A stretch of DNA of 64,000 nucleotides from Salinisphaeraceae bacterium (GTDB lineage: Bacteria; Pseudomonadota; Gammaproteobacteria; Nevskiales; Salinisphaeraceae), in the NCBI GenBank assembly GCA_002683405.1, contig NYTH01000008.1, forward strand, positions 54,040 through 118,039, in the 5' to 3' direction. The position numbers were made by a program, and so were the translations under genes. Below the pieces are notes generated by a model, which was given only the letters and a program-made list of their open reading frames with translations, ran no database searches and had not been told where the DNA came from. Positions 43,125-52,235 of this stretch are shown here, piece by piece (the first letter of the stretch is position 1; every line of letters starts with the position of its first letter).

Positions 43125-43331
43125 GGTGATTCTCCCGGGAAAAGGTTGTCGCGGTGGCCGACATGGTGTCCGCCGCGCAGATTAATGGCGGGCTGCGGGT
43201 CTGACAAGCGGCCGCATCAATGAGCAGGCCTGACCGGTTGCGGTGCCCGTCACGGCCGGCGCGGGCGCGTCTCGGATAGCGGCGCCGGGGGTTCTTGCTA
43301 CACTTCGCCGGGGTTCACTCGAGTCGATCCG

Positions 43332-43901
43332 ATGACGAAATATTGCCTGGGAGCCGTGCTGCTGGGGCTGGTGCACACGCTGGCCTGGGCGCAGACGCGC
43401 TACATCAGCGATGAGGTCTCGGTAAACCTTCGCAGCGGCCCCGGCATCGAATACCGGATCGAAAAGATTCTGCGCTCGGGCGATGTGGTCGAGGTCATCG
43501 AGCGCCAGGAAGGCTGGGCGCGGGTCACCGGGCCGGACGGCCAGGGCGGCTGGCTGGTCGACCGCATGCTCGTGACCGAGGAGCCGGCCGTGGCGCGGGC
43601 CCGGAAATTCGAGGCTCAGGCCCAGTCGCTGGAAACGCAGAACCAGAATCTGACGCAGGAACTACAGTCGCTGCGCGAGACCAGTGCAGACGCCGTTCGC
43701 GCCGTTCGGGAAAATCGCGAATACCGCGAGCGCATGCTGGCCCTGGAAAGCGAGGTGCAGGCACTGCGCAACGAAAACGAGGGTCTGCGCGGGCGTCATG
43801 GCGGCATGAAAATCGGCGCTGCCATTCTGGTGGTGGGGCTGCTTCTGGGTCTCATCCTGCCGCTTCTGCGGCGTCGGCCCAGCAGCAGTCACTGGGTCTG
43901 A
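43332..43901 (+). CDS. YgiM-like SH3b-domain protein (signal peptide, SH3, coiled coil, C-terminal TM)
   Basis: 189 aa with 'RYISDEVSVNLRSGPGIEYRIEKILRSGDVVEVIERQEGWARV' (SH3b), a coiled coil at aa about 95-150 and the TM 'IGAAILVVGLLLGLILPLL'. Confidence 0.75.
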   Translation: MTKYCLGAVLLGLVHTLAWAQTRYISDEVSVNLRSGPGIEYRIEKILRSGDVVEVIERQEGWARVTGPDGQGGWLVDRMLVTEEPAVARARKFEAQAQSLETQNQNLTQELQSLRETSADAVRAVRENREYRERMLALESEVQALRNENEGLRGRHGGMKIGAAILVVGLLLGLILPLLRRRPSSSHWV

Positions 43902-44019
43902 GACAGCGTCGGCACGCCGTCCGGCGTCCGTCTTGTAGGCCGTCAGCGTAAACAGTACCGTACCGCTCATCCCATCCACCGCGTGATGCCGGGTCGCCGA
44001 CCCGCACCGGAACCCCCTA

Positions 44020-45915
44020 ATGGAACATCATTTAAGCCAGGCCCTGATACTCATCGTTTTTCTGGGCATCCTCTCCCAATGGCTCGCCTGGCGTCTGCGG
44101 ATACCGGCCATCGTGCTGTTTCTCGCCAGCGGTGTGATCGTGGGCCCGCTGCTGGGCCTGGTGAATCCGAGCGAGGATTTTGGCGACGTTCTGCGGCCGG
44201 TAATTGGCCTGGCGGTGGCCATCATTCTGTTCGAGGGGGGTCTGAATCTTCGCTATCACGAATTCAAGGAAGCCGCGTCGGGCGTGAAGCGACTGGTGGT
44301 GCTGGGTGCACCACTGGCCGGTATTCTGGGTTCGCTGGCCGCGCATTACATCGGCGCCCTGTCGTGGCCCACCTCGCTGCTGCTGGGCGCCATTCTCATC
44401 GTCACCGGGCCGACGGTCATCATCCCGATGCTGCGGCAGGCCGGGCTCAACCGGCGCACGGCGTCCTACCTGAAGTGGGAAGGCATCATCAACGATCCCA
44501 TCGGCGCCCTGTTGGCGGTGATGGTGTTCCAATATTTCGTGCTGACCGGCGGCGAGGGCAGCGGCGAGGAAGTCTTCATCGAATTCGGCTGGGCGGTGGC
44601 CAGCTCTCTGCTGCTGGGCGTGGGCACCGGCTGGGTGCTCGGTCAGGCGTTCTTGCGCAGCATGGTGCCGGAATACCTGAAGGCGCCCGTCACTTTCGCG
44701 ATCGTGCTGGTGGTCTACGGCGTGGCGAACCTCACCTTCCACGAGGCCGGGCTGCTGGCCGTCACCGTGATGGGCATGGTCATGGGCAATATGGACCTCC
44801 CCAGCATGGCCGAAATGCGCCGGTTCAAGGAATACATCACCATCCTGATGATCTCGACGGTGTTCGTGACGCTGACGGCCGACCTGGACCCGGTGGTGCT
44901 GTCGCATCTGGACTGGCACGCCGCGGCGCTGGTGGCGGCAGTCATGTTTATCGTGCGGCCGGCGGTGGTCTTTCTCTCCACGCTGTTCACCGATATGGAC
45001 TGGCGCGAACGCACGCTGGTGGGCTGGATCGCCCCGCGCGGTATTGTGGCCGCGGCGGTGGCCGGCGTATTCGGGCCCCGCATGGTGGAGGCGGGCTACC
45101 AGGACGCCGAGTTGCTGCTGCCGATCGTGTTTGCCGTGGTGTTCTCGACGGTCATACTCCACGGGTTTTCCATCGGCCGAGTATCGCGCTGGTTACGGCT
45201 TTCACAGGAGCCGCACGGCGTGCTCATTGCGGGGGCGTCGCCCTGGAGCACCGAGCTTGCCCGCGCGCTGACCAACGAGCTGAACGTGACGGCCATCCTG
45301 GTGGACTCCTCCTGGCATCGACTGCGTGCGGCCCGCCTGGCCGGTGTGCGCGTGCTGTATGGCGAGGTGCTGTCCGACCAGATTCAGCAGTCGCTCGAGC
45401 TCAACGAGATCGCCTGTCTGCTCGCGGCCACCAGCAATGACGCCTACAACGCCCTGGTCTGCGGCAATTTCGCCGCCACGCTGGAGCCGGAGCGCGTATT
45501 TCAGCTCCCCATGTATGCCGCCGAGGAGGACAACAATTCCAAGGTGGTGTCCCGGCCGCTGCGTGGGCAGCCGGCGTTCAGCGACAGCGCGCAGTACGAG
45601 GAACTCTGGCGGCGCCACTTTCAGAACTGGCAGTTCTACAAGACCCGTATTACCGACACCTACCGCTATGACGACTTCCTCGAGGATTGCCCGCCCGACG
45701 CCATCATGATCGGCATCCTCTACGAGGACGGCAGCCTGATATTCCAGTCGGCGCGCGAGCCGGAAAAACTGCATCCCGGCGAAACGCTCATCTACTACGC
45801 GCCCAAGAAGAGCGGCGGCAACAACCGGCGCAAGGAAGGCCCGGCGAAGGACGCCACGGCCGAGTCGCCGGCAGACGATGACAAGACCGAATCCGCCCAG
45901 CCTGGCGACGCCTGA
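44020..45915 (+). CDS. CPA1-family Na+(K+)/H+ antiporter with a C-terminal RCK/KTN-like cytoplasmic domain
   Basis: 631 aa. Polytopic N-terminal ~400 aa ('LFEGGLNL', 'GPTVIIPML', 'INDPIGALLAV'). The C-terminal ~230 aa are soluble, with the Rossmann-like 'VLIAGASPWSTELARAL...AILVD'. Confidence 0.9.
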   Translation: MEHHLSQALILIVFLGILSQWLAWRLRIPAIVLFLASGVIVGPLLGLVNPSEDFGDVLRPVIGLAVAIILFEGGLNLRYHEFKEAASGVKRLVVLGAPLAGILGSLAAHYIGALSWPTSLLLGAILIVTGPTVIIPMLRQAGLNRRTASYLKWEGIINDPIGALLAVMVFQYFVLTGGEGSGEEVFIEFGWAVASSLLLGVGTGWVLGQAFLRSMVPEYLKAPVTFAIVLVVYGVANLTFHEAGLLAVTVMGMVMGNMDLPSMAEMRRFKEYITILMISTVFVTLTADLDPVVLSHLDWHAAALVAAVMFIVRPAVVFLSTLFTDMDWRERTLVGWIAPRGIVAAAVAGVFGPRMVEAGYQDAELLLPIVFAVVFSTVILHGFSIGRVSRWLRLSQEPHGVLIAGASPWSTELARALTNELNVTAILVDSSWHRLRAARLAGVRVLYGEVLSDQIQQSLELNEIACLLAATSNDAYNALVCGNFAATLEPERVFQLPMYAAEEDNNSKVVSRPLRGQPAFSDSAQYEELWRRHFQNWQFYKTRITDTYRYDDFLEDCPPDAIMIGILYEDGSLIFQSAREPEKLHPGETLIYYAPKKSGGNNRRKEGPAKDATAESPADDDKTESAQPGDA

Positions 45916-46553
45916 TGCAGTGGCCGGACGCCGGGCAGCGCGCGCGCGATCTGCTGGAGGGGCCGGCCGGCGTGCTGGAGTGCGAAATCGCCGCCCCCGA
46001 GAGCTCGCCAGCGGGGGTGGCGATCGTCTGTCATCCGCATCCGCAGTATGCCGGGACCATGGATAACAAGGTGGTCTACACGCTCATGCGCAGCTGCCTG
46101 AAGAGCGGGCTGGCTACGCTGCGCTTTAATTTCCGCGGCGTGGGCCGCAGCGAGGGCGACTACGACGCCGGTCGCGGTGAGACCGATGACGCCGCCGCGG
46201 CCGCCGAGTGGCTGCAGCGACAGCAGCCCGGTCTGCCGCTGCTCATCGCCGGTTTTTCCTTCGGCGCAGCCGTGGCGCTGCGATTGGCGCTGCGGTCGGC
46301 GCCGGCGGGGCTTGTCACCGTGGCCATGCCCACGAACTATTTCGACAGCGTCGCCTCGCCCGGCTGTCCCTGGCTTGCGGTGTACGGATCCGGCGACGAC
46401 GTCATCGACGCTGACGCCTCAATGGCCGCACTGAGCGCTCTGGATGATGGCCCGCGCATCGAAGTGCTCGACGGCGCCGGGCATTTCTTTCACGGGCGGC
46501 TGGGAGAAGTCGACCGGCTGGTCGCGCCATTCTGCGCGCAGCATGTGTCATGA
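45915..46553 (+). CDS. Alpha/beta-fold hydrolase (COG2945-like)
   Basis: 212 aa with 'IVCHPHPQYAGTMDNKVV' and the nucleophile elbow 'AGFSFGAAV'. The start overlaps the antiporter stop by 1 nt. Confidence 0.8.
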   Translation: MQWPDAGQRARDLLEGPAGVLECEIAAPESSPAGVAIVCHPHPQYAGTMDNKVVYTLMRSCLKSGLATLRFNFRGVGRSEGDYDAGRGETDDAAAAAEWLQRQQPGLPLLIAGFSFGAAVALRLALRSAPAGLVTVAMPTNYFDSVASPGCPWLAVYGSGDDVIDADASMAALSALDDGPRIEVLDGAGHFFHGRLGEVDRLVAPFCAQHVS

Positions 46554-47170
46554 CGCGGTGGCTTGCCGCCGGAATAGTCACGATCTGGTCGGTTTATGGC
46601 GTCGCCGGCGACCTCATGCAGGACATGTCGGCATGGGAAACGCAGCCTTTTGACGAGATCCAGCCCAGCCGCTACAGCGTCGATGCCGCGCCCGAGGCGC
46701 CAGTCATTACCGGCCGCTGCGACAACAGTGCCTCGCTGTTCGGCCTGCGCCGGGAGATCGATCTGCGGCGCACGCCCACGCTGCACTGGGAATGGCAGGT
46801 CGACGGCGTGTATCCGGGCATCGACGAACAATCGAAATCCGGCGATGACTTTGTCGCCCGCGTTTATGCGGTCAAGGATGGGGGGCTTCTGAAATGGCGC
46901 ACCCGCGCGCTCAACTACGTCTGGGCCAGCGAGGCCGCGCCCGGCACGCACTGGCCCAATCCCTTTCGCGAGCAGGCCATGATGATTGCGTTGCAGCAGG
47001 GGAATGCCCGGGTCGGCGAGTGGGTGGCCGAGTCCCGGAATATCCGGGAAGACTTCAGGCGTTTCTTTGATCGCGACGTGGACAGCATCGACGGAATTGC
47101 CATCATGACCGATTGCGACAACCACGGCGGCCAGGCAGAGGTTCGCTTTCGCAACATCCGGTTTCGATGA
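46550..47170 (+). CDS. DUF3047-like secreted protein
   Basis: 206 aa with a hydrophobic N-terminus. 'SGDDFVARVYAV' and 'LNYVWASE' resemble DUF3047 as I remember it. ATGA overlaps on both sides. Confidence 0.6.
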   Translation: MTRWLAAGIVTIWSVYGVAGDLMQDMSAWETQPFDEIQPSRYSVDAAPEAPVITGRCDNSASLFGLRREIDLRRTPTLHWEWQVDGVYPGIDEQSKSGDDFVARVYAVKDGGLLKWRTRALNYVWASEAAPGTHWPNPFREQAMMIALQQGNARVGEWVAESRNIREDFRRFFDRDVDSIDGIAIMTDCDNHGGQAEVRFRNIRFR

Positions 47171-47502
47171 GCGGCCGGCATGCGGACCCGTCGGGCACCG
47201 CCCGTTTTGCCGTAGGCATGGTCATTCGACATCGCCTGTTCGGTTATCGCGGCGTGATTGCCGACGTGGATGCGGCGTTCGGTTTGTCGGAGGCCTGGTA
47301 TGCCCGCATGGCCCGTAGCCGTCCGCCGCGCGATGAGCCCTGGTACCGGGTACTGGTGGACGGCGGCGAACACGAAACGTACGTGGCCGAGCGAAATCTG
47401 GAGCGCGACGATTCGGATGAACCCATCCGGCATCCGGCTGTCGATGAGTTCTTTGACCTGTTTGAAGCCGGCCGCTACCGGCCGCGGGAGTATCGGATGT
47501 GA
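47167..47502 (+). CDS. hspQ: Heat-shock protein HspQ (YccV, hemimethylated-DNA-binding fold)
   Basis: 111 aa from ATG 47167. 'RFAVGMVIRHRLFGYRGVIADVD' and 'PWYRVLVDGGEHETYVAERNL' are the YccV-family core. Confidence 0.85.
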   Translation: MSGRHADPSGTARFAVGMVIRHRLFGYRGVIADVDAAFGLSEAWYARMARSRPPRDEPWYRVLVDGGEHETYVAERNLERDDSDEPIRHPAVDEFFDLFEAGRYRPREYRM

Positions 47503-47954
47503 GTTTGCTTGAACGCCTAAAGACCAGCCTGACGGTGGACGAATCCGCCAGCGCGAGTGACCGGCAGCATGATCTGCAGATTGCGGCCGCGGTGCTGCTG
47601 CTGGAAATGGAGCGCGCCGATGACAACCTCGAGTCCACCGAACGCAACGAGATGCAGCGGCAACTCGAGCAGATGTTCGATCTGACGGCCTCGGAAAGCG
47701 AGGAACTGCTCAGTGCGGCAGAGCCGACGGCGGACGAGGCCATTACGCTGCATCGCTTTGTTGAAGCCATCAACGAGGCGTTCGATATCGCCCAGAAACG
47801 CGCCGTGCTCACCATGCTCTGGCGCGTGGCCTTCGCCGATGGCGATCTGGATGCGCACGAGGAGCACCTTATGCGCAACGTGGCCGACTGGCTGCATCTG
47901 GCCCATCGCGATTTCATCCAGACCAAGCTCGCGGTGACCGAAGGCGAGGCCTGA
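47499..47954 (+). CDS. TerB-family (tellurite-resistance TerB-like) protein
   Basis: 151 aa with a GTG start overlapping the hspQ stop. 'IAAAVLLLEMERADDNLESTERNEM' and 'LWRVAFADGDLDAHEEHLMRNVADWL' fit the TerB four-helix, acidic metal-binding repeat pattern. Confidence 0.75.
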   Translation: MSLLERLKTSLTVDESASASDRQHDLQIAAAVLLLEMERADDNLESTERNEMQRQLEQMFDLTASESEELLSAAEPTADEAITLHRFVEAINEAFDIAQKRAVLTMLWRVAFADGDLDAHEEHLMRNVADWLHLAHRDFIQTKLAVTEGEA

Positions 47955-47964
47955 TCAGCCGCCC

Positions 47965-49437
47965 ATGGCCATGACGCGCGCGACCCTTTTGCGGCTGCTG
48001 ATCCTGCTGGCAGCGCTGTTCTTCATGCTGGGCAGCCTGCTGTTCGTCCTGGGTGCGGTCGAGCGTCTGGTGGATCTCTGGGAGCGCAGCCTCGCGCTTT
48101 CCCCGGTGCTGGCCGCCGGCCTGGCGCTGCTGCTGGGTCTGTTCGTGGCGGCGACGCTCTGGCTGATCTGGTGGATCATGCGCCCGCCACGCCGCCGGCC
48201 CCGCGAAGAAACCGTCAGCGCGGCTTCGCTCGATGCCCGTCTGGCACGGGCCCGCGACAGCGGGCTGGATACCGGGGCGGTCGACGCCGAACTCGAGGAA
48301 CTGGCCCGGCGCCGCGAGGCGGCCGAACTGCATATTGCACTGTACGGCCAGGTCAGCATGGGCAAGTCGTCGCTGGTGGCGGCTCTGCTGCCCGAGGCGC
48401 GGGTGCAGACCGATGTCCGCGCCGGGACCACGCGGGCGCTGCAGCGCTATCTCTGGGAGGGTCCGCGGGGTGATCGAATTACCCTGACGGACGCGCCCGG
48501 CCTGAACGATCCCGCCGCTGATGCGCAGCTGGCGCGCGAGGAGGCGCTGCGGGCCCAGATCGTCATCTATCTGTGCGACGGGGATCTCACCCGCGATCAG
48601 TGGCAGGCACTGCGGGACCTGGCGGCGCAGGACAAGCCGCTCATTGTCGCCATCAACAAGATCGACCGGCTGGAAAGCGACGATCTGGCCCGGATCCGCG
48701 AGCGTCTGGAACAGGGCCTTGCGGGCAGACCGCGCCTGCAGGTGGTGGCCGTGAATACGGGGGGGCAGGAAGAGATGATTCGCGAGCGCCCCGACGGCCA
48801 GGAGGAACGCGTGCTGCGGCCGCGCGCGGCGGACGTGGCCGAACTGATCGAAGCGATCGAAACCCAGCTGCTGGCCGGCTCGGACAAGCTGGACGGCCTG
48901 CGCGACACCGCGATTCTGCACCTGGCTTCTGGCAAGCTGGACGCCACGCTTGATGCTCAGCGGCTCGAGAAGGCCGAGGCGCTGGTCGCCGTCTACACGC
49001 GGCGCGCGGTGCTGGGCGCGCTGGCGGCGGTGTCGCCGGGCTCCGATCTGGTTATTCAGGGGGCCCTGGCCACTCAGTTCGTGCGCGAGCTGTGCAAGCT
49101 CTATGACGCGGTGCCCCGCGAGCTGGAAATCGAGAAGCTGCTCAGGTCGGCCAATCGACGCGTGCGGCGCAACTCGGCCGTGGTACTGGCGATTGCCGGC
49201 AACGGCCTCAAGGCCTTTCCGGGGGCGGGCACGGTCACCGGCGGGCTGATGCATGCCGTAGCCTACGGACTGCTGTTCGACACGCTCGGCCGGGCCATGG
49301 TCCACAACCTGCGCACCCGCGGGCAGCTGCGGACCGAACCGACCGCCGATGTCTTTGAAAGCCTGCTTGACGAGGACCTGCTGCCGCGCGCCCGGCGCAT
49401 GGCGTCGCTGGTGCTCAAGCGCCAGGGGCGTCGCTGA
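47965..49437 (+). CDS. Membrane GTPase with C-terminal DUF697 (YcjF-like) domain, paralogue 1
   Basis: 490 aa with two N-terminal TMs. G1 'GQVSMGKS', G3 'DAPGLND', G4 'INKID'. C-terminal hydrophobic DUF697-like region 'AVLGALAAVSPGSDLVIQ...AIAGNGLKAFPGAGTVTGG'. Confidence 0.8.
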   Translation: MAMTRATLLRLLILLAALFFMLGSLLFVLGAVERLVDLWERSLALSPVLAAGLALLLGLFVAATLWLIWWIMRPPRRRPREETVSAASLDARLARARDSGLDTGAVDAELEELARRREAAELHIALYGQVSMGKSSLVAALLPEARVQTDVRAGTTRALQRYLWEGPRGDRITLTDAPGLNDPAADAQLAREEALRAQIVIYLCDGDLTRDQWQALRDLAAQDKPLIVAINKIDRLESDDLARIRERLEQGLAGRPRLQVVAVNTGGQEEMIRERPDGQEERVLRPRAADVAELIEAIETQLLAGSDKLDGLRDTAILHLASGKLDATLDAQRLEKAEALVAVYTRRAVLGALAAVSPGSDLVIQGALATQFVRELCKLYDAVPRELEIEKLLRSANRRVRRNSAVVLAIAGNGLKAFPGAGTVTGGLMHAVAYGLLFDTLGRAMVHNLRTRGQLRTEPTADVFESLLDEDLLPRARRMASLVLKRQGRR

Positions 49438-50819
49438 TGGCGAATTCATCCGGACCCCACGACCCGGCGGAAGGCCAGGGCGGCGCTGTGCCGGGGACCC
49501 GGGACGACTTCTGGCGCATCAAGGAAAGCCTGCGTGCCCTGCTGGATGATCCGCACGTGCCGCCCGGCATTCGCGAGAACCTGCGCGCCGATTACGACAC
49601 TCTGCGCGCCATGCTCGACAAGCTCGAGCAGGAGCAGGTTCACATTGCGGTGTTCGGCCGCGTGTCGGTGGGCAAGTCGTCGCTGCTCAATGCGCTGATA
49701 GGCGCACCGCGCTTCACGGTGAGCGCGCTGCATGGCGAAACGGCTCGACCGGCCATGCAGTCCTGGGAAACGGTGGCCTCGCAGGGCGTTTATTTCATCG
49801 ATACGCCCGGTATAAACGAAGTGGACGGCAAGGCGCGAGAGCAAATGGCGGTCGAGGTGGCGGGTCGCAGCGATCTGGTGCTCTTCGTGGTCGACGGCGA
49901 CATGACCGCCAGCGAACTGGACGCGCTGGAACGAATCTGGATGCAGAGCCGCCCCATGCTGCTGGTCCTGAACAAGGCCGACCAGTACACCCGCGAAGAA
50001 CAGCAGCAGCTGCTCGAACGGCTGGGTGAGCGCGCCCGGGGCCGCGTGGCGCCCGAGGATATCGTGGCGACCAGCGCGCATCCCGGCGAACGGATTTATC
50101 TGGTCGCCGACGAGGCGGGGCAGGAGATCGAGCAGCGACGGCGTCCGCCGCCCGACGTGGCGGCCCTGAAGGCCCGGCTGATCCGCATCCTGGAAACCGA
50201 GGGCAAGATGCTTGCCGCCGTCAACGCGGGTCTGTTTGCCGGCGAGTTGAGTGATCAGGTCGCGCGCCGCGTCACGCAGGCCAAGCAGGAGGTGGCGGCC
50301 CGCGTTATTCGCAACTACTGCATCGGCAAGGGCGTGGCGGTGGCCGTGAACCCGGTCCCGGTGACCGATCTGGCGGCTGCTGCGGCGCTGGATATCACCC
50401 TGGTGGTACATCTGGGGCGAGTCTACGGGCTGCCTGTCACACGGGGCGAAGCTGGCCGCCTGATCGCCCAGATTTCGGCGCAACTGGCGCTGCTGATGGG
50501 CGCGGTCTGGGGCATGAACCTGCTGTCCTCGGCATTGAAGACGGTCAGTGTGGGCGCGTCCGTGGCCATCACGGCGGTGGGCCAGGGGGCGGCGGGTTAC
50601 TATGCGACCTACGTGGTTGGCCAGTGCGCCGAGCACTATTTCCTGCAGGGCAAATCCTGGGGCGCGAAAGGGCCCAAGACGGCCGTTCGCGATATCCTGT
50701 CGGGTATCGACCGGCGGTCCATTCTGCAGCAGGCGCGGGAGGATATTCGCGCCCGGCTGCGAACGCAGCCGGGCCGGTCAAGCTGGTTTTCGCGCCGTTC
50801 GCGATCGGAGGACAAATGA
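49437..50819 (+). CDS. GTPase with C-terminal DUF697 (YcjF-like) membrane domain, paralogue 2
   Basis: 460 aa. G1 'GRVSVGKS', G3 'DTPGINE', G4 'LNKAD'. C-terminal 'AVAVNPVPVTDLAAAAALDITLV...AVGQGAAGYYATYVVG'. The start overlaps the stop of paralogue 1 by 1 nt. Confidence 0.8.
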   Translation: MANSSGPHDPAEGQGGAVPGTRDDFWRIKESLRALLDDPHVPPGIRENLRADYDTLRAMLDKLEQEQVHIAVFGRVSVGKSSLLNALIGAPRFTVSALHGETARPAMQSWETVASQGVYFIDTPGINEVDGKAREQMAVEVAGRSDLVLFVVDGDMTASELDALERIWMQSRPMLLVLNKADQYTREEQQQLLERLGERARGRVAPEDIVATSAHPGERIYLVADEAGQEIEQRRRPPPDVAALKARLIRILETEGKMLAAVNAGLFAGELSDQVARRVTQAKQEVAARVIRNYCIGKGVAVAVNPVPVTDLAAAAALDITLVVHLGRVYGLPVTRGEAGRLIAQISAQLALLMGAVWGMNLLSSALKTVSVGASVAITAVGQGAAGYYATYVVGQCAEHYFLQGKSWGAKGPKTAVRDILSGIDRRSILQQAREDIRARLRTQPGRSSWFSRRSRSEDK

Positions 50820-51190
50820 GCAAACAACGGGTGGCCGGGCTGGCCGTACTGGTTTTCCTGGCCGGTTGCGCCGGTGAAGAGCCGGGTAAGCTGACTATTG
50901 ATAATGCCCGCTCGGCCGGTCTGGAGACCGACCGTCAGCAGCTGTTCGACATGATAGAGGCCGAAGACGGCTGGAGCGGCTACTGGGCCGGCGACCGGGT
51001 GGAGCTGTACCAGTACGAACGCAGCTCAGACGTGAAGCGGGACTTCTTCGAGGGCGTCGTGGCCGTGAGCCAGGAAGAAAATCACGGCTGGGTGGAGTTC
51101 TGCCAGCAGAAGAACCTGATCATGCTGTCGAAGGGCAAGCATGCCTGCACGCGGCTGGAGACGGTCACCGCCGGCAACCCCGTCGAATAG
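50816..51190 (+). CDS. Small lipoprotein of unknown function
   Basis: 124 aa from ATG 50816 (ATGA overlap with the GTPase gene). Lipobox 'LVFLAGCAG'. No family recognised. Confidence 0.6.
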   Translation: MSKQRVAGLAVLVFLAGCAGEEPGKLTIDNARSAGLETDRQQLFDMIEAEDGWSGYWAGDRVELYQYERSSDVKRDFFEGVVAVSQEENHGWVEFCQQKNLIMLSKGKHACTRLETVTAGNPVE

Positions 51191-51195
51191 CGTCG

Positions 51196-51624
51196 CTACT
51201 CGGGGTAGAGGGCCTGACGCGCCTGCACTGGAATCATCGGCCCGTCATCGGGCCGAACTTCCAGGTCGAAGATCAGCAGGTCGTCGTTGCGCACCGGAAA
51301 CTGGGCGATGTAGTCCACCACGCCCGCCTCGCGCACCTCGCGAAATGTCAGATCACGGCCGTTGCCCAGCAGGTCGCGCACGCGGCCCTCGACGCTGCCC
51401 GACACGGCGTCGCCGAGGGATTGGTCGCGCGCGTCCCGGCGGATATTGACGAGCATGACGCCGGTTCCGCCGCTGCGCTGGACGCCCACCCGGCGCGCGA
51501 TGTCGGGCGTGAGCGTGGTGCTCATGAAGGCGTTGTAGTGAATGCGGTACTCGCCCTGCTGTTTCTGGCCGGCCATGACCGGCGCCGCCAGCGCCAGGCA
51601 CAGTGCCCCGAGCCAGACGCTCAG
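51196..51624 (-). CDS. DUF4426-domain periplasmic protein (start codon uncertain)
   Basis: 'YRIHYNAFMSTTLTPDIARRVGVQRSGGTGVMLVNI' matches the DUF4426 family found after metW in pseudomonads. The signal peptide '[18 protein letters not shown]' has no canonical start. The alternatives are CTG 51624, ATG 51750 and ATG 51576. Confidence 0.6.
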   Translation of the reverse strand: MSVWLGALCLALAAPVMAGQKQQGEYRIHYNAFMSTTLTPDIARRVGVQRSGGTGVMLVNIRRDARDQSLGDAVSGSVEGRVRDLLGNGRDLTFREVREAGVVDYIAQFPVRNDDLLIFDLEVRPDDGPMIPVQARQALYPE

Positions 51625-52235
51625 CCGCGCTCTAGCTGATAAAGGGCGATTTCCCCGAGCAGGTTGGGAAAGACGCGAGTGCGCAGGCTGCTGGCGTGCT
51701 CGTGATTGACCACGTGCCGCTGCGTCACCCGGATGTGATTGCTGGCGCATAGCTTTTCGAAGTCGCGCACGGTGCACAGATGGATGTTGGGCGTATCGTA
51801 CCACTGGTTCGGCAGCGCCTTGGACACCGGCATGAGCCCGTGCCAGGCAATCGAAAGACGCGGGCGCCAGTGGCCGAAATTGGGAAAAGTGACGATGCCC
51901 TGGCCGCCGATTCGCAGCATCTCGCGGATCAGTTCATCCGGCTGCTGCACCTGCTGCAGGGCACTGGCCATGACGACCACGTCAAAGCTGTTGTCCTCGA
52001 ACTGGCCCAGACCGTCATCCAGATCGAGCTGCAGCACGTTGACGCCGGCGCCAATGCTGGCCACCACGTTGTCCGGATCAATCTCCAGGCCGTAGCCGCT
52101 GACCTGCTTGTCGGCCTGCAAATGCGCCAGCAGCTGGCCGTCGCCACAGCCCAGGTCCAGCACGCGAGCGCCGCGCGGAATCCAGTCGGCAATGATGCGC
52201 AGATCGGCGCGCAGTGGTTTCGAACCGCCCGTCAC
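51621..52235 (-). CDS. metW: Methionine biosynthesis protein MetW
   Basis: 204 aa with '[13 protein letters not shown]' and '[13 protein letters not shown]'. 4-nt overlap with metX. Confidence 0.93.

Follow-up and report, generated by a model that had tools for sequence, protein, structure and literature searches.

Gene content of the locus

Here, we examine a locus in a 64,000-nucleotide stretch of DNA from a Salinisphaeraceae bacterium (contig NYTH01000008.1 of GenBank assembly GCA_002683405.1, positions 54,040 to 118,039 of the forward strand; the whole stretch is called the window below), on which genes for HspQ, a TerB-domain protein, two membrane GTPases (GTP1 and GTP2) and a small lipoprotein lie in immediate succession. 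An earlier note on this DNA had taken these five genes for a single module. We find instead that GTP1 and GTP2 form a conserved, self-contained twin cassette, in this order, across Gammaproteobacteria and Magnetococcales, and that HspQ and TerB close a backbone operon typical of the lineage, which runs from an antiporter through an α/β-hydrolase and a DUF3047 protein to HspQ and TerB. With a probability of roughly 0.6, the locus consists of two units side by side, of which the GTP1-GTP2 pair would be a heteromeric, GTP-switched inner-membrane device.

The open reading frame (ORF) map holds eight consecutive genes on the plus strand, from the antiporter (44020) to the lipoprotein (51190), and genes called independently on a public contig of identical sequence include the same five from HspQ to the lipoprotein; the same arrangement is present on public contigs of the window species (Table 1). 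GTP2 has 100 % identity to a protein annotated in a Salinisphaeraceae metagenome-assembled genome. The identities and positions of all five genes are as the earlier note had described them. HspQ is a member of its NCBIfam equivalog TIGR02097 (104.4 bits, cutoff 38.05) and scores 94.5 bits against the Pfam YccV-like family PF08755 (22.8). TerB matches PF05099 with 104.4 bits (gathering score 24.4) in an alignment that spans profile positions 1-117 of 118, and neither the ORF map nor the gene call of the contig contains terZACDE genes near it.

Domain architecture of the paired GTPases

GTP2 combines an MMR_HSR1 GTPase domain (PF01926, 70.4 bits) with DUF697 (PF05128, 104 bits, 9e-30), both above their gathering scores. 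GTP1 likewise carries MMR_HSR1 (53.6 bits in Pfam), whereas its DUF697 match reaches only 21.4 bits, under the gathering score of 27.7. The claim that both proteins are fused to DUF697 therefore stands for GTP2, while the corresponding region of GTP1 is divergent, sub-threshold and less hydrophobic. GTP1 is nevertheless counted as a GTPase-DUF697 protein because its homology to GTP2 at the profile level is full-length: hhalign aligned the two families with a probability of 100 % and an E-value (E) of 6e-45 over 351 columns, from the G domain through DUF697. GTP1 and GTP2 are non-identical full-length paralogues.

The motifs of P-loop GTPases of the TRAFAC class are found in both proteins, which are thus predicted GTPases. 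Those quoted in the earlier note (GQVSMGKS/DAPG/NKID in GTP1 and GRVSVGKS/DTPG/NKAD in GTP2) are present exactly so and are conserved across orthologues. In a 120-sequence alignment, GTP2 residues G79 K80 S81, T102, D122/G125 and N179 K180 D182 are invariant. Among GTP1 orthologues, which are ~490 amino acids long, T156, D176/G179 and N231 K232 D234 are invariant in 120 sequences; for G133 K134 S135, conservation is at least 90 % in the 120 and complete in a curated set of 26. Both proteins place a hydrophobic residue directly after G3 (DTPGI in GTP2, DAPGL in GTP1), a feature also found in Era, Der, MnmE and FeoB. The fourth G1 position is Ser in both; an Asn at this position coordinates K+ in GTPases.

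Confident AlphaFold2 models (GTP2: predicted local distance difference test score, pLDDT, 84.6 and predicted template modelling score, pTM, 0.72; GTP1: 89.7 and 0.79) suggest a shared plan. Two to three N-terminal helices are followed by a G domain of ~145 amino acids and a two-stranded β-hairpin insertion, after which a helix of 49-63 residues leads into 4-5 helices that make up the DUF697 region. The two proteins appear to differ in their attachment to the membrane. Only GTP1 bears two strong N-terminal transmembrane helices, as the earlier note had recognized from the sequence; these stand out both as Kyte-Doolittle peaks (2.93 and 2.40) and as AlphaFold helices 5-45 and 47-72. The hairpin is followed by the stretch RPPRRRPREE, which, by the positive-inside rule, would place the G domain in the cytoplasm. 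In GTP2, the three DUF697 helices listed in Table 1 have few charges and moderate hydrophobicity, judged by hydropathy and charge counts, whereas the equivalent helices of GTP1 are polar and far less hydrophobic. Because of this difference, the two subunits appear to have complementary membrane anchors, namely the N-terminal hairpin of GTP1 and the DUF697 helices of GTP2.

Table 1. Genes of the locus and features of the two GTPases (window coordinates; aa, amino acids; nt, nucleotides)
Feature	Position	Strand	Basis and remarks
Na+/H+ antiporter (Na_H_Exchanger + TrkA_N)	44020-45915	+	ORF map, Pfam
α/β-hydrolase	45915-46553	+	1-nt overlap with antiporter; Pfam
DUF3047 protein	46550-47170	+	4-nt overlap with α/β-hydrolase; Pfam
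HspQ/YccV	47167-47502	+	4-nt overlap (ATGA) with DUF3047 gene
TerB, stand-alone TerB-domain protein	47499-47954	+	4-nt overlap (GTGA) with HspQ gene
GTP1, 490-aa membrane GTPase, first cassette gene	47965-49437	+	10-nt spacer after TerB gene
GTP1 predicted N-terminal transmembrane hairpin, aa 5-72	47977-48180	+	Hydropathy, AlphaFold
GTP1 G domain, aa 122-262	48328-48750	+	G1 GQVSMGKS, G2 T156, G3 DAPG, G4 NKID
GTP1 C-terminal helical region, aa 306-489	48880-49431	+	Divergent, DUF697-like; aligns to GTP2 family
GTP2, 460-aa GTPase-DUF697 protein, second cassette gene	49437-50819	+	1-nt overlap (TGATG) with GTP1
GTP2 G domain, aa 67-211	49635-50069	+	G1 GRVSVGKS, G2 T102, G3 DTPG, G4 NKAD, G5 SA
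GTP2 DUF697 domain, aa 268-425	50238-50711	+	PF05128; hydrophobic helices 310-329, 336-366, 375-403
Small lipoprotein, 124 aa	50816-51190	+	4-nt overlap (ATGA) with GTP2

Conservation of the GTP1-GTP2 pair

The GTP2 family alignment was scanned against one genome per GTDB species, and the window proteins were then placed on the resulting loci by tblastn. Twenty loci contain true GTP2 orthologues with 49-59 % identity, and at 17 of them a GTP1 orthologue lies directly upstream in the same orientation, often overlapping GTP2. This recurrent adjacency, together with the hhalign result, bears out the description of the two GTPases as paired and non-identical. The orthologous loci span Chromatiales, Ectothiorhodospiraceae, Competibacter, Thiotrichaceae, Achromatium, Sedimenticola, Woeseiaceae, Arenicellales, Xanthomonadales-type genera and Magnetococcales. 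Moreover, the pair is adjacent in all six further metagenomic contexts that were examined.

The closest relatives (59-69 % identity) keep the pair amid unrelated neighbours. These include a glutathionylspermidine synthase with a PhoQ-type two-component system; diacylglycerol kinase, Tam41 and Glu-Cys ligase; OmpA and DinB; and a DUF6713 protein. The flanking genes vary from locus to locus: ORF clustering across 22 loci revealed no recurrent neighbour of the pair, and the crude gene calling used in high-GC DNA could miss weak associations. The GTP2 profile as a whole recruits 521 clusters at 50 % identity (E ≤ 1e-30). Some members of the GTP2 family are longer, at 606-700 amino acids (P0285, P0287 and P0301), with N-terminal extensions of 170-260 residues that match no Pfam family and could be either mis-called starts or an extra domain.

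Separation from the HspQ-TerB backbone

The earlier note had named a lack of conservation of the pair together with TerB and HspQ in other genomes as a result that would count against its module. No co-occurrence was found. HspQ, TerB, DUF3047 and the lipoprotein gave zero tblastn matches, even at E ≤ 1, in the 20 genome loci; HspQ, TerB and the lipoprotein are not beside the pair in the six metagenomic contexts of its closest relatives; and none of six distinct TerB homologue contexts has a GTPase as neighbour. In one metagenome, the HspQ-TerB block and the GTPase pair are found on separate scaffolds. As the pair occurs without HspQ and TerB, and TerB without the GTPases, the window juxtaposes two independent units; we consider the independence of the cassette from HspQ and TerB highly probable and their link in the window a local accident of gene order.

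The TerB homologues show what the backbone looks like elsewhere. At four loci (L089, L092, L094 and L100), TerB follows the α/β-hydrolase and no GTPase is near. L089 and L094 carry the order antiporter-hydrolase-DUF3047-HspQ-TerB with an identical 4-nucleotide HspQ/TerB overlap, and unrelated genes thereafter. L092 retains the upstream order seen in the window (IlvD-TatD-SH3-antiporter-hydrolase-TerB), and its TerB gene abuts DUF4426 directly, followed by MetW-MetX-YggT-ProC-IlvA-GT9. In distant TerB homologues, only the hydrolase-TerB adjacency is kept, or not even that. In the window, the cassette sits between TerB and the convergent DUF4426-metW-metX block, with the species-specific lipoprotein gene after it. 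Insertion of the cassette here and its loss from the relatives are both compatible with the data. L092, the relative that lacks the cassette, also carries a gene for an IS200/IS605-type Y1 transposase (1112-1804) between ilvD and tatD.

The close packing in the window, which the earlier note had described, is real, including the 10-nucleotide spacer between TerB and GTP1. Its choice of HspQ as the first gene of a module did not hold up: the antiporter, α/β-hydrolase and DUF3047 genes overlap one another just as HspQ and TerB do, and the left edge at 47167 is therefore arbitrary. The lipoprotein at the other end begins with MSKQRVAGLAVLVFLAGC, which includes an LAGC lipobox, with Ala at position +2. 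It has zero matches in Pfam, NCBIfam and PADLOC, and tblastn over all loci together with the metagenome scan recovered only identical same-species copies as relatives. It may be a young, lineage-specific gene and, as far as these sequence searches indicate, is not conserved alongside the cassette. The packing of genes in one genome was thus misleading, and TerB and HspQ should not be used for inferring the function of the GTPases.

Relationship to known GTPase families

The resources searched yielded no characterized homologue of GTP1 or GTP2. The best NCBIfam match is the slr1306 family (NF049994), whose cutoff of 490 bits lies far above the 78.0 bits reached by GTP1 and the 148.8 bits reached by GTP2. 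Like the cassette proteins, its members are GTPase-DUF697 proteins, here of cyanobacteria; the match covers both the G domain and DUF697, and homologues from Prochlorococcus share 29-31 % identity across residues 50-421. Unlike the cassette, two cyanobacterial loci have a single gene rather than a pair, and the family is itself uncharacterized. The literature searched on DUF697, slr1306, YcjX/YcjF, paraseptin and TerB with HspQ contained zero functional studies of GTPase-DUF697 proteins, in keeping with the earlier note, which knew of no established function for such fusions. The architecture is catalogued in databases as 'GTP-binding protein' or 'DUF697 domain-containing protein', and the window instance is an ordinary member of this family. 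We know of no earlier description of the conserved twin arrangement and its complementary anchors.

DUF697 recurs with two unrelated kinds of GTPase: fused to an Era-like domain, as in the cassette, and operon-linked to a DUF463 protein in enterobacteria. The annotation of E. coli YcjF is that of an inner-membrane protein with DUF697. Its gene overlaps ycjX by 4 nucleotides, and the two genes are almost always adjacent, behind a σ32 promoter (PMC3041696). GTP2 and YcjF thus have PF05128 in common, each system links DUF697 genetically to a GTP-binding protein, and YcjF resembles GTP1 in having two N-terminal hydrophobic helices. In the cassette, however, the GTPase is fused to DUF697 and is of the Era/Der-like MMR_HSR1 type rather than DUF463, and there are two paralogous fusions rather than one GTPase and one membrane protein. 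Direct comparison of E. coli YcjF with the GTP2 profile by hhalign is weak (E 0.016, 50 columns, aligning the core motif to hydrophobic YcjF residues 213-262), so that what ties GTP2 to YcjF is their common membership of PF05128.

Profile searches of the PDB matched G domains only, with Der first (2e-25), followed by HydF, Era and MnmE; weaker matches were a Campylobacter dynamin-like protein (DLP; 1e-11), LeoA (2e-7) and Toc34 (2e-7), and zero solved structures cover DUF697. Despite this sequence proximity, neither protein is an Era or Der equivalog: the scores are 75.6 against a cutoff of 306.7 for Der and 69.1 against 237 for Era, there is a single G domain, and Pfam and NCBIfam matched no KH domain in GTP1 or GTP2. 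Structure comparison with Foldseek ranked Era first for GTP1 (3iev_A), along with GIMAP7, immunity-related GTPases (IRGs) and Toc34. For GTP2, the top matches were IniA, the bacterial dynamin-like protein BDLP, Campylobacter DLP1/DLP2, mitofusins and LeoA (E ~1e-7) together with IRGs, whereas its G domain alone superposes tightly on Era 3iev_A (2.4 Å over 160 columns).

The GIMAP/AIG1, Toc34 and IRG families share with the cassette proteins small TRAFAC G domains, helical extensions and membrane anchors, and AIG1 matches GTP2 with 30.1 bits (gathering score 27). These families are eukaryotic and lack DUF697, and the likeness is limited to the G domain and a general helical extension. They act through homotypic or heterotypic G-domain dimers. 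Paired dynamin-like proteins (Campylobacter DLP1/DLP2, LeoA/LeoBC, IniA/IniC and BDLP) and mitofusins resemble the cassette in being tandem, non-identical membrane GTPases and, going by the predicted structures, in combining a G domain and long helices with a hydrophobic, membrane-inserting hairpin. The cassette proteins differ in having a G domain that is roughly half as large and nearer to Era/Der in sequence, and a helical region that is DUF697 rather than a recognized stalk or paddle, with no specific sequence signal. Any kinship with dynamin-like proteins is therefore architectural and logical only, and membership of their family is not demonstrated.

Proposed mechanism and alternative explanations

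The pair may reasonably be read as a heteromeric membrane GTPase, for which the evidence is indirect: the genes are strictly paired and often overlap in distant lineages, both active sites are retained, and the anchors appear complementary. GTP1 and GTP2 would form a complex at the cytoplasmic face of the inner membrane, with GTP1 held by its N-terminal transmembrane hairpin and GTP2 by its hydrophobic DUF697 helices. Both Era-sized G domains, each with a hydrophobic residue after G3, would bind and hydrolyse GTP, and the long helix after the G domain might relay the nucleotide state to the DUF697 helical module, changing its membrane association or its conformation. We give this heteromeric relay about even odds. 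The result would be a switched membrane activity, for example in membrane maintenance, remodelling or stress handling, following a logic akin to that of paired bacterial dynamin-like proteins, of GIMAP2/GIMAP7 and of YcjX (the GTPase) with YcjF (the DUF697 protein). The suggestion of a role in membrane maintenance or stress handling draws solely on two analogies, one to dynamin-like proteins and the other to the σ32-linked ycjXF genes.

Several observations weigh against a self-contained heteromeric pair with dynamin-like logic. In Rudaea and Dokdonella, GTP1 and GTP2 are split by ~1.9 kb, and at one Chiayiivirga locus GTP1 was not found within 9 kb. At the two cyanobacterial loci examined (L020 and L021, from Prochlorococcus), the relative is a single gene, and pairing is therefore not universal among GTPase-DUF697 proteins. 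No GTP1-GTP2 fusion (~950 amino acids) was present in the best 150 matches among 1.84 billion representatives. The 10 nucleotides that separate the cassette from TerB make co-transcription and a local functional link conceivable in this genome. Finally, the Foldseek template modelling scores of GTP2 to dynamin-like proteins are only 0.25-0.36, with root-mean-square deviations above 15 Å, and the PADLOC matches of GTP1 and GTP2 to LeoA/LeoBC (55-57 bits) were rejected, as a control Campylobacter Der scored 62 bits on LeoA.

Two side observations concern these last comparisons and the split loci. The PADLOC models PDLC03839 (LeoA) and PDLC03841 (LeoBC) give E-values of ~1e-17 for an ordinary Campylobacter Der, and isolated matches to them are not evidence for a dynamin-type defence gene. 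In Rudaea, the ORFs inserted between GTP1 and GTP2 (L010, 7990-9790) resemble YceI-cytochrome b561-YceI, judged by sequence alone.

Among the alternatives, the one that fares best, though we still consider it unlikely, is that the pair is a genuine miniaturized member of the BDLP/mitofusin family, driving membrane fusion, fission, tethering or repair with GTP. The Foldseek ranking of GTP2 points that way, as does its Dynamin_N match in Pfam (47.8 bits, gathering score 27); the plan of G domain, long helix and hydrophobic helical hairpins fits as well, and tandem non-identical pairs are typical of bacterial dynamin-like proteins, with PDB 5owv titled 'an oligomerised bacterial dynamin pair'. 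However, the Dynamin_N match is broken into two fragments and GTP1, at 26.9 bits, stays below the cutoff, while the LeoA model recognizes Der too. The AlphaFold G domain of ~145 amino acids is Era-sized and falls short of the ~300 amino acids of the dynamin type, the PDB profile search favours Der/Era (2e-25) over dynamin-like proteins (1e-11 to 1e-6), and the structural superpositions are poor.

It is much less probable that the pair is a GTP-gated transporter or channel similar to FeoB, with a pore built from the DUF697 helices and the GTP1 transmembrane hairpin and gated by the G domains. GTP2 does match FeoB_N (38.5 bits, gathering score 27), a G domain and a hydrophobic C-terminal region are joined in one polypeptide, and the pair offers ~4-5 candidate membrane helices. 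Yet FeoB_N, which is the G domain, is the only part of FeoB matched: TIGR00437 scores 30.7 bits against a cutoff of 315.65, and zero FeoB_C or Gate domains were found. Furthermore, the DUF697 helices are moderately hydrophobic at best and largely polar in GTP1, and no transport-related gene recurs in the neighbourhood.

We regard as very improbable the idea that HspQ, TerB, both GTPases and the lipoprotein form one stress-sensing or envelope module, in which TerB and HspQ would serve as sensor or chaperone partners. The genes are co-oriented, overlap or lie 10 nucleotides apart and are probably co-transcribed in this genome, and the σ32 heat-shock promoter of ycjXF offers an analogy (PMC3041696). 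Against this, the linkage is seen in the window species only, being absent from all 20 genome loci and from the six metagenomic and six TerB contexts; the antiporter, hydrolase and DUF3047 genes are coupled as tightly, so that coupling cannot mark out a module here; searches for lipoprotein homologues gave only identical copies from the same species; and a scan found no σ32-like promoter. Finally, membrane-tethered Era/Der-type GTPases serving ribosomes or co-translational membrane-protein biogenesis are the most doubtful candidates of all, for although the best sequence matches are the G domains of Der, EngA, Era and HydF and the top Foldseek matches of GTP1 include Era and ribosome-bound GTPases, both proteins lack a KH, Der C-terminal or other RNA-binding domain, their equivalog scores lie far below the cutoffs, and the G domain is followed by DUF697, which has no known ribosome link.

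Flanking genes

The stop codons of the lipoprotein gene and the convergent DUF4426 gene are 5 nucleotides apart, a gap too short for any terminator, and beyond DUF4426 lie metW, metX, yggT and proC. From its first possible start, the DUF4426 ORF (51196-51804, minus strand) encodes 202 amino acids, compared with 126 in public gene calls. Because the longer version would run ~180 nucleotides into metW (51621-52235), the short start is more likely. A scan of 43300-51900 for σ70 promoters and terminators gave counts equal to the shuffle expectation. E. coli hspQ is, like ycjXF, σ32-regulated; a σ32 consensus scan of the locus gave zero matches.

The α/β-hydrolase of the backbone has as its best NCBIfam match the 'type IV pili motility protein SglT' (NF058544), with 77 bits against a cutoff of 300, and its homologue at L100 is close to pilT-type ATPase genes (T2SSE). 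The adjacency of hydrolase and TerB persists in the distant loci L092 and L100, whereas DUF3047-HspQ is present only in a subset (L089 and L094). A functional link of the small TerB protein with the hydrolase or the antiporter may be worth attention.

Significance

What survives from the locus is a widespread two-gene membrane GTPase cassette with intact motifs, which is testable. The recurrent pairing of GTPase and DUF697 also provides a testable handle on an old puzzle of the heat-shock regulon, namely YcjX/YcjF. A bolder extension, which we hold to be unlikely as a whole, is that DUF697 would be a general GTPase-driven membrane effector and the pair a minimal, Era-derived heterodimeric analogue of mitofusin and BDLP for inner-membrane remodelling or repair, evolved independently of the dynamin superfamily, with GTP1 integral to the membrane and GTP2 reversibly inserted under nucleotide control; this would also explain the σ32-regulated YcjX/YcjF. 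The recurrent GTPase-DUF697 pairing may also point to another way, besides dynamins, in which bacteria drive membrane work with nucleotides.

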